Positions 11,395-11,653 of a DNA stretch of 64,000 bases are shown here, piece by piece. Numbering within the stretch: the stretch's first letter is position 1; each line of letters starts with the position of its first letter. A program made the position numbers and the translations under genes. The DNA is from an uncultured bacterium (GTDB lineage: Bacteria > Patescibacteriota > Patescibacteriia > CAIQCM01), in assembly GCA_963708045.1 (NCBI GenBank), contig OY970181.1:887566-951565 (forward strand), written 5' to 3'. Below the pieces are notes generated by a model. It was not told where the DNA came from, searched no databases, and worked only from the letters and a program-made list of their open reading frames with translations.

Positions 11395-11516
11395 TTATTA
11401 AATACTGATTATATCTTACAGGATGGATAGAAGTTAAAATAGGCGCAAAAATGTAATAGGGGAAAAGATAAGTAAATAAAGGAGAAATGATGGTTGGCGT
11501 CGCACATTATATCTTA

Positions 11517-11653
11517 GGCGACGCATTACCTATTATATATGCGTCGCCTAAGATTGCGCATATTTTATAACGCCTAACAAGGGTTTAGAGTCGTCATAAA
11601 ATATGCTTCACGGCGACGTATTACCTATTATATACGAGTCGCCTAAGATTGCG
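11517..11653. repeat. two 42-nt direct repeats, each a 10-bp-stem hairpin, flanking an 11-bp-stem hairpin; candidate structured RNA/regulatory element
   Basis: GGCGACGCATTACCTATTATATATGCGTCGCCTAAGATTGCG (11517-11558) vs GGCGACGTATTACCTATTATATACGAGTCGCCTAAGATTGCG (11612-11653). The differences are compensatory within the stem. GCATATTTTAT/ATAAAATATGC hairpin between them. Confidence 0.5.

Follow-up and report, generated by a model that had tools for sequence, protein, structure and literature searches.

A candidate dif site beside an array of arm-derived hairpins downstream of ftsQ in Patescibacteria

What are the repeated hairpins that occupy a gap between two genes on the chromosome of an uncultured patescibacterium? 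The gap is 416 bp long (11395-11810), lies in a stretch of 64,000 nucleotides that has been analysed as a whole and is called the window here, and separates two minus-strand genes. As a preliminary description of the region had already stated, the gene on one side encodes an FtsQ-type protein (11811-12629, minus strand, POTRA_1 in Pfam). The other gap neighbour (10135-11394, minus strand), which had been taken for an M6 protease gene, encodes a protein of 419 aa for which Pfam has returned no M6 or other protease domain and only EF-hand matches below threshold. The same description had proposed a riboswitch- or attenuator-like arrangement and had suggested an Rfam search, which has been run at gathering and at permissive thresholds and has given neither a family match nor anything else relevant to the hairpin region; a search for tRNA and tmRNA has found none.

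Repeats and hairpins in the gap

The following structured segments have been distinguished, with the copies named by their distance from a candidate dif site at the low-coordinate end of the array:

11511-11554, minus strand: hairpin B, dif-proximal copy (previously repeat 1), stem of 16 perfect base pairs, loop of 12 nt
11558-11606, minus strand: hairpin A (previously the 11-bp inverted repeat), with a covarying outer stem, a conserved TTTTRCGAY block and a complementary stretch ending in AAAA
11612-11660, minus strand: distal, decayed copy of the hairpin B segment (previously repeat 2), 88% identical to the proximal copy and weakly folding
11651-11690, minus strand: degenerate remnant of a distal hairpin A, weakly folding, of which only the 3' half (GGGTGTTGAAACAAACGC) is recognisable when read against the units of three relatives (L081, L083, L055)

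The two direct repeats noted earlier are real: segments 11517-11565 and 11612-11660, 95 bp apart, are 88% identical, and no further copy has been found elsewhere in the 64-kb window (0 expected by chance), in which TRF has called no tandem array and in which the one weak match to a unit, at 20430, lies within a gene. Only the first copy forms the hairpin in full, with the 12-nt loop as described and a stem of 16 perfect base pairs instead of 10, and its predicted folding energy amounts to -26.8 kcal/mol (about -27, z = -7) as RNA and to -18 as DNA. In the second copy the fold is weak (-13.7 kcal/mol, z = -1.75), and 10 of 200 shuffled sequences match it. Five differences between the copies had been read as preserving the stem, and selection on structure had been deduced from them. 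Since both copies have the same length, they align without gaps, and the alignment gives three stem-damaging substitutions rather than two compensatory changes and a GA bulge; two copies alone are in any case no evidence of compensation, and covariation appears in the cross-species comparison only. The 11-bp inverted repeat between the copies exists as a perfect core inside an 18-nt inverted repeat of 89% complementarity, which forms hairpin A and folds at -20.1 kcal/mol on the minus strand and -15.8 kcal/mol on the plus strand. The mutually exclusive hairpins are geometrically real but lopsided, at -12 against -27 kcal/mol. The upstream segment GGCGTCGC, from which the alternative 7-bp hairpin had been built, is the invariant right arm of the site described next, and that hairpin is the site's own palindrome.

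Sequence, conservation and surroundings of the dif-like site

The site and the motif that faces it are laid out as follows:

11497-11524, minus strand: candidate dif core, a 28-bp quasi-palindrome of 11-6-11 layout, on the minus strand GCGTCGCCTAA-GATATA-ATGTGCGACGC
11514-11524, minus strand: variable (XerC-type) arm of the candidate dif
11508-11513, minus strand: AT-rich central region of 6 bp
11497-11507, minus strand: invariant (XerD-type) arm of the candidate dif
11458-11463, plus strand: AGGGGA polar motif, a KOPS-like candidate that lies 34 nt away beyond the invariant arm and is directed toward the site

Published dif sites consist of two 11-bp half-sites around a 6-bp centre and are located at the terminus (PMC5357621; PMC3025954), with the XerC arm reported as variable and the XerD arm as invariant (PMC3025954). 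The site in the window is single-copy even when up to three mismatches are allowed, and relatives carry one per contig. A scan of metagenome contigs for the motif has yielded 20 further stretches, and TAAGATATAATGTGCGAC has also been found in two loci fetched through alanine racemase, a gene for which the scan of genome contigs has given no close relative (top match 45% identity). The core TAAGATATAWTGTGCGAC, flanked by dyad-symmetric GTCG/CGAC, has been found identical in 22 independent Patescibacteria chromosomal contigs, usually just after ftsQ, where the count of 22 distinct chromosomal sites allows one variant (ATATT) and includes five in loci that were fetched through alanine racemase and thus not selected by the motif. 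In two further motif matches (L085, L086) the flanks are absent, and both appear to be fortuitous. The consensus across sites reads nnGTCGnnTAAGATATAWTGTGCGACnC, and comparison of the 22 sites has shown dyad-symmetric, covarying outer arms, with the left arm variable and the right arm invariant.

In the 28-mer of the window the outer dyad is complete (positions 1-6 against 23-28 pair 6/6). The inner-arm palindrome, positions 7-12 against 17-22, gives 2/6 pairs, which falls short of the more than four pairs that Kono et al. ask of a dif site at these positions. Identity to known dif seeds is not above chance (E. coli 15/28, B. subtilis 15/28, F. alni 11/28), and by dif-seed similarity the site ranks 134 of 127,946 (~128,000) window positions; at this chance level the similarity has not been used as evidence. 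Pfam has detected no Xer or FtsK protein among 29 ORFs of the window, nor has one been found in the motif-bearing loci, where a regex search for tyrosine recombinases has found none near the sites. Given the chance-level seed identity, the inner palindrome that fails and the lack of a Xer or FtsK gene in the sequence examined, the putative assignment as dif-type rests on architecture and genomic behaviour, not on sequence homology. A LexA box, suggested by lexA and dinB at 5-7 kb distance, has been rejected, as the site is single-copy, at least 24 bp long and absent upstream of lexA.

An unbiased k-mer scan of both sides of the site has placed GGGGA (338:61 toward the site) and AGGGGA (131:7) at the top. 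With the window excluded, the GGGGA polarity amounts to 174:41 on the left against 16:135 on the right (Fisher p = 7e-44), and the flip is present in every locus. Genes directed away from the site keep the polarity (62:14, p = 2e-8), which is therefore not a by-product of gene direction; between 6330 and 11400 of the window, where all genes lie on the minus strand, GGGGA is found 5:1 on the plus strand. The flip is sharp, with counts of 10:0 between -400 and -200 bp and of 2:18 between 0 and +200 bp, which places it no more than one 200-bp bin away from the site, and a scan of every possible cut of the 64-kb window has located the best flip point at 11,500-11,700. AGGGGA itself, with a strand skew of ~95% toward the site and an occurrence of about once per 2 kb, falls within the KOPS criteria used in other bacteria, for which a skew of at least 90% near dif has been the prediction threshold (PMC3384302), and we regard it as a candidate FtsK-orienting motif for the phylum. 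On the opposite strand, most of the 22 lineages have TCCCC(T) at a distance of ~10-65 nt to the invariant arm (13/22 right flanks vs 2/22 left flanks). The placement at the terminus has been judged from local sequence, i.e., the 64-kb window and the contigs: in most loci, positive GC skew gives way to negative skew at the site, on which genes converge in the motif-bearing loci. Left of the site the skew of the window is ~0, not clearly positive, and no skew switch has been seen in the two GC-rich loci L055 and L098.

Copies of the site have also been found in phage contigs. A tailed-phage contig (L109, with terminase and HNH) holds an exact 24-bp site at 6354-6377, around which the polar motif does not converge, and a 6.7-kb inovirus-like contig (L111, with a Zot-like protein, a rolling-circle Rep and an integrase) holds the site centre and right arm at 348-365 next to a different left arm. 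Both possibly represent phages that integrate at dif. IMEX and phages integrating at dif through host Xer proteins are known to carry such sites (PMC5357621). Neither GenBank phages nor PLSDB plasmids have given a BLAST match to the site.

ftsQ lies directly upstream of the site in the window (11811-12629) and in seven further loci (L003, L013, L019, L034, L039, L071, L096), with 35-515 nt between stop codon and site. Many lineages have no hairpin units, and their site follows ftsQ by 35-100 nt. A division gene beside a dimer-resolution site thus seems to be a conserved arrangement in divergent Patescibacteria.

Taken together, we consider it likely that 11497-11524 of the window is the dif site of a Patescibacteria chromosome, beside a copy-number-variable array of hairpins derived from its arms. 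At such a site a Xer-type tyrosine recombinase would exchange strands and resolve chromosome dimers, and an FtsK-type translocase would be steered to it by the AGGGGA motifs that point at the site from both replichores. The literature searched has contained no paper that links Patescibacteria or CPR with a dif site or KOPS. If correct, the assignment would provide a terminus marker of at least 18 invariant bases for a large uncultured group, a candidate FtsK-guiding motif (AGGGGA) for Patescibacteria and a ready means of testing phages for integration via the Xer proteins of the host, and it would help to close and orient genomes from metagenomes, to assign phages to hosts and to study how segregation is completed in very small cells.

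Composition and possible roles of the hairpin array

Relatives have been reached through FtsQ homologues of 40-60% identity, which have led to orthologous gaps in L081/L082, L083, L104 and L106. Read in ftsQ orientation, these gaps share one plan, i.e., hairpin A, three bases and hairpin B, the latter composed of ATCTTAGGCGAC, an inner stem with its loop and then GTCGCC, and the array always terminates in GTCGCCTAAGATATAATGTGCGAC. Overall, one to three copies of 94-96 bp have been found (2.0 copies of 94 bp in L081, 3.0 copies of 96 bp in L083), and L081 and L082, which come from the same organism, differ over 8 kb by four mismatches and exactly one 94-bp unit.

The stems consist of sequence from the dif arms: reverse-complementing the arm GTCGCCTAAGAT gives ATCTTAGGCGAC, and the left dif arm extended by three centre bases gives, likewise reverse-complemented, the left arm of hairpin B; in the window, the hairpin B arm at 11511-11526 equals the variable dif arm plus part of the centre, and the arm at 11539-11554 is its inverted copy. 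The hairpin arm follows the variant of each lineage (GTCGCC/GGCGAC in the window, L081 and L083; GTCGCA/TGCGAC in L106; GTCGTC/GATGAC in L055). Furthermore, the TTTTRCGAY block of hairpin A resembles the other (right) dif arm TGTGCGAC, and the unit junctions, composed of GTCGCC, 9-15 nt and T[GA]CGAC, look like pseudo-dif sites. Based on the arm-like blocks and the junction pattern, the array can be read as a series of dif-like sites in alternating orientation, with the hairpins being neighbouring inverted copies. Left-arm copies upstream of dif have been found in seven lineages, six inverted and one direct, and no right-arm copies downstream of dif in the lineages surveyed. Units occur next to dif only, across the window and all fetched loci, and dif-proximal units are intact where distal units are decayed. 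Three lineages without full A+B units (L084, L092, L098) carry degenerate direct or inverted left-half copies 24-60 nt upstream of the real site. Two contigs of one sample, the end of L089 and the start of L090, both stop at the site with an overlap of 99 nt, which indicates an assembly-graph branch exactly at the site, and the contigs of L104, L107 and L108 end inside or just before the repeat array. For recombination at the site, this branch and the copies in L109 and L111 are indirect evidence.

The comparison of homologous intergenic regions that had been recommended in the preliminary description has confirmed that the structure of hairpin A is kept in relatives. Among nine units from six lineages, 92% of the cells are paired and 9/16 pairs have changed on both sides, a value that none of 500 shuffles has reached, and slid controls are paired to 35-53%. 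Hairpin A thus appears, on strong comparative grounds, to be conserved as a structure, which supports the base pairs as such without separating RNA, fold-back DNA and the concerted evolution of inverted repeats. In hairpin B, too, the outer stem changes with the lineage (CC/GG, CA/TG, TC/GA). A strand preference has been seen as well, with 13 G-U versus 2 A-C among the non-Watson-Crick cells of hairpin A when read on the ftsQ-sense strand, and with the better fold on this strand in 10/11 units. This bias fits equally well to an RNA read through from ftsQ, to fold-back DNA, for which the ftsQ-sense strand would be the lagging-strand template left of the terminus, and to inverted repeats that mutate with a strand bias. 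Should only one strand be relevant, this is the ftsQ-sense strand, i.e., the minus strand of the window, and the conserved structure that had first been read on the plus strand would have to be placed there.

Most likely, the hairpins are an array that derives from dif, is prone to recombination and lies on the variable-arm side of the site, whether their role is that of an accessory element, a scar or an RNA. The repeats would constitute a short tandem array, of which the window holds about two decayed units of ~95 bp each, and the last hairpin B would share its 3' arm with dif itself. The dif-proximal end may be where units are formed and replaced, through recombination or through replication slippage at the terminus, and they were possibly seeded by single-stranded phages that integrate at dif. 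If they act at all, it would be as DNA, by offering the recombinase additional half-sites or by folding back.

Among the more specific readings, it is possible, if somewhat unlikely, that the units are non-functional scars, left by repeated integration and excision of dif-exploiting elements of the CTX type or by template-switch and slippage errors at the terminus, and that palindrome-correcting mutation, not selection, keeps the arms complementary. The attP of CTX is a folded structure of two inverted dif-like sites 90 nt apart that resembles the XerC side (PMC5357621), to which one may compare the unit length of 94-96 bp and the distance of 20-33 nt that separates dif from an inverted variable-arm copy. 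The phage contigs that carry the site, one of them inovirus-like, point in the same direction, as do the decay gradient away from dif, the pseudo-dif copies upstream of dif in L084, L092 and L098, and the assemblies that break at the site or within the array (L089/L090, L104, L107). However, the A+B architecture has been kept across FtsQ identities of 40-60% and even in the GC-rich L055, 94 bp is too small for an autonomous element, and the phage contigs contain no unit-like sequence, since BLAST of the units against L109-L111 has returned chance-level words only.

Rather doubtful, by our estimate, is that the units are a functional, self-renewing fold-back array of pseudo-dif sites, which would grow dif-proximally by Xer-mediated events or events of the single-stranded-phage type and control recombination. 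For such control, the array might hold extra recombinase, offer the variable arm in hairpin form on the lagging-strand template or couple ftsQ read-through to dimer resolution. To our knowledge, an accessory architecture of such fold-back arrays has not been described for any chromosomal dif. As an unusual neighbour of dif, the dif-derived array would offer a tractable case for the question whether fold-back DNA or RNA modulates Xer recombination.

We regard as distinctly unlikely that the hairpins belong to an RNA in the 3' UTR of ftsQ on the minus strand, where they would be terminator-like, stabilise the 3' end or act as cis-regulatory elements, and where the overlap with dif would be opportunistic. 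The covariation of hairpin A (0/500 shuffles) and the preference for the ftsQ-sense strand speak for such an RNA, and two unit-free lineages (L003, L019) have an ordinary hairpin with a T-run between ftsQ and the site, so that a stop of transcription before dif seems to be wanted. A consensus terminator scan, however, has found none at hairpin A or B; neither is followed by a U-tract, and hairpin B is followed by AUAAUGUGCGAC. Stems that are built of dif-arm sequence and track the dif variants would not be needed by an RNA hairpin, and Rfam has no matching family, the number of units is polymorphic and the distal ones decay. The G-U excess, counted in cells that are not independent of each other, may reflect a strand-biased C-to-T mutation, and G-T is the most stable mismatch in DNA. 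The more specific claim of a riboswitch or attenuator is not supported: besides the absent Rfam match and the unbalanced alternative folds, the unit number varies between 0 and 3 among relatives, the gene downstream differs by lineage, most lineages with the arrangement of ftsQ and site have no hairpins, and the presumed switch segment is an arm of a 28-bp site with the behaviour of a recombination site (convergence of polar motifs, skew switch, phage copies).

That the invariant motif is a promoter, with TATAAT inside TAAGATATAAT and a palindromic operator, from which a small RNA with CUCCCCU would pair with ribosome-binding sites and for which the hairpins would be upstream regulatory DNA, appears very improbable. 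This reading builds on the hexamer in the site centre, on the recurrence of TAAGATATAAT in a promoter-like site at 11408-11418 and on TCCCC(T) 10-65 nt downstream in most lineages; but TCCCC is the reverse complement of the genome-wide polar GGGGA, which flips here over many kb and cannot be explained by a local small RNA. Moreover, neither a conserved -35 element nor a consistent downstream terminator has been seen, promoters are not characterised by dyad symmetry or by an invariant GTGCGAC beyond the -10 box, and the site is present in phages and upstream of unrelated genes. Exceedingly improbable, finally, is that the hairpin-rich, tandem units represent a dispersed element (REP/BIME, MITE or miniature IS200/IS605-type), of which further copies are absent from the 64-kb window and from the remainder of every fetched locus, a tiny CRISPR-like array, against which it counts that entire units are repeated instead of a repeat between unique spacers and for which no cas genes have been seen, or two small plus-strand ORFs (11487-11570 and 11603-11680) that share LGDxLPIIYxSPKIA and of which the first has an AAGGAG ribosome-binding site 5 nt upstream, as these ORFs are unconserved (frameshift and stop after nine codons in L081, no start codon in L083).

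Relation to known systems and further observations in the window

With the candidate dif and its array as the preferred reading, the closest relatives are XerCD/dif of E. coli and B. subtilis together with KOPS/SRS, with which the site shares the length of 28 bp, two 11-bp arms of which one is variable, the AT-rich 6-bp centre, the position at a switch of skew and gene orientation, the convergence of G-rich polar motifs and the copies carried by phages; with one copy in the window and one per contig, it may also share their single-copy state. It differs from them in its sequence, which matches at chance (15/28) and does not contain the canonical XerD arm TTATGTTAAAT, in a GTCGCA core common to both arms, in a symmetry that resides in the outer and not the inner part of the arms, and, with regard to the known KOPS setting, in a polar motif that is the hexamer AGGGGA, present ~once per 2 kb. 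In XerS/difSL, XerH/difH and archaeal XerA/dif, which are lineage-specific and unlike E. coli dif, the arms are likewise more alike and could bind one protein; in contrast to xerS-difSL, no recombinase gene has been found beside the site here, and the centre spans 6 bp, not 11.

The plasmid sites cer and psi, with accessory sequences of ~180 bp, resemble the locus in that a core is joined on one side by structured DNA, here of 100-300 bp, that could organise a synapse, but their accessory sequences bind PepA, ArgR or ArcA and consist neither of copies of the core arm nor of tandem hairpins. The fold-back attP(+) of CTX phage and the IMEX arrays share the intrastrand pairing of inverted XerC-side dif copies, the stacking of elements beside a regenerated dif and an inovirus-like contig that carries part of the site, whereas the units here are ~95 bp long and gene-free, fold back through one arm and 3 nt of the centre and have no sequence link to the phage contigs. 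Similarly, the pdif modules of Acinetobacter are short DNA segments bounded by dif-like sites in alternating orientation, yet they carry genes and are plasmid-borne, and the corresponding modules here would be hairpin loops of 12-30 nt on a chromosome. REP/BIME elements also form tandem imperfect palindromes of variable copy number after the last gene of an operon, but are dispersed in hundreds of copies, unlike the units found only at dif.

Close to ftsQ, the gap contains one further structure:

11738-11785, no strand assigned: extended palindrome around the GAAGGTAT-GTTG-ATACCTTC hairpin, conserved in relatives but inverted in the window

The hairpin proper is present as described before, although at 11751-11770 and not at 11741-11760. 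The palindrome may be a terminator-like element of ftsQ and possibly belongs to the system of site and array. The conserved element CGAGGCATTTAAATCGCTTATACGCGTTTTGAAGGTATGTTGATACCTTCCCC (11727-11785) lies on the plus strand in the window and on the ftsQ-sense strand in L081, L083, L104, L105 and L106; the opposite orientation is a small inversion in the lineage of the window, where the palindrome around the hairpin has been extended. Between the hairpin that follows ftsQ and the hairpin units, relatives carry a heptamer array, (AATATCT) x 4.4-4.6, at 6876-6907 in L081, at 833-863 in L083 and also in L104, L105 and L106, with AATGTCG as the heptamer in L106; the array is absent from the window.

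On the other side of the site, TAAGATATAAT, the sequence of its centre, recurs at a distance of 98 bp (11408-11418) as part of TTAACT-18-TATAAT, a match that resembles a promoter and closely precedes the 419-aa gene. This gene is one of three large ones at 6326-11394, coding for apparently secreted proteins of 560, 697 and 419 aa with sub-threshold EF-hand and beta-helix matches, which span the distance from the site to a switch of gene orientation (~6330) and, going by the inferred direction of replication, are transcribed away from the site. Farther into the window, secA is split into two ORFs of different frames, with the N-terminal domains at 47691-49379 and the C-terminal domains at 46663-47682, which could be due to a frameshift, a pseudogene or an assembly error, and a Type I restriction-modification system (hsdR, hsdS, hsdM) occupies 26434-33473, with GC falling to 30% at 30-32 kb around hsdS.
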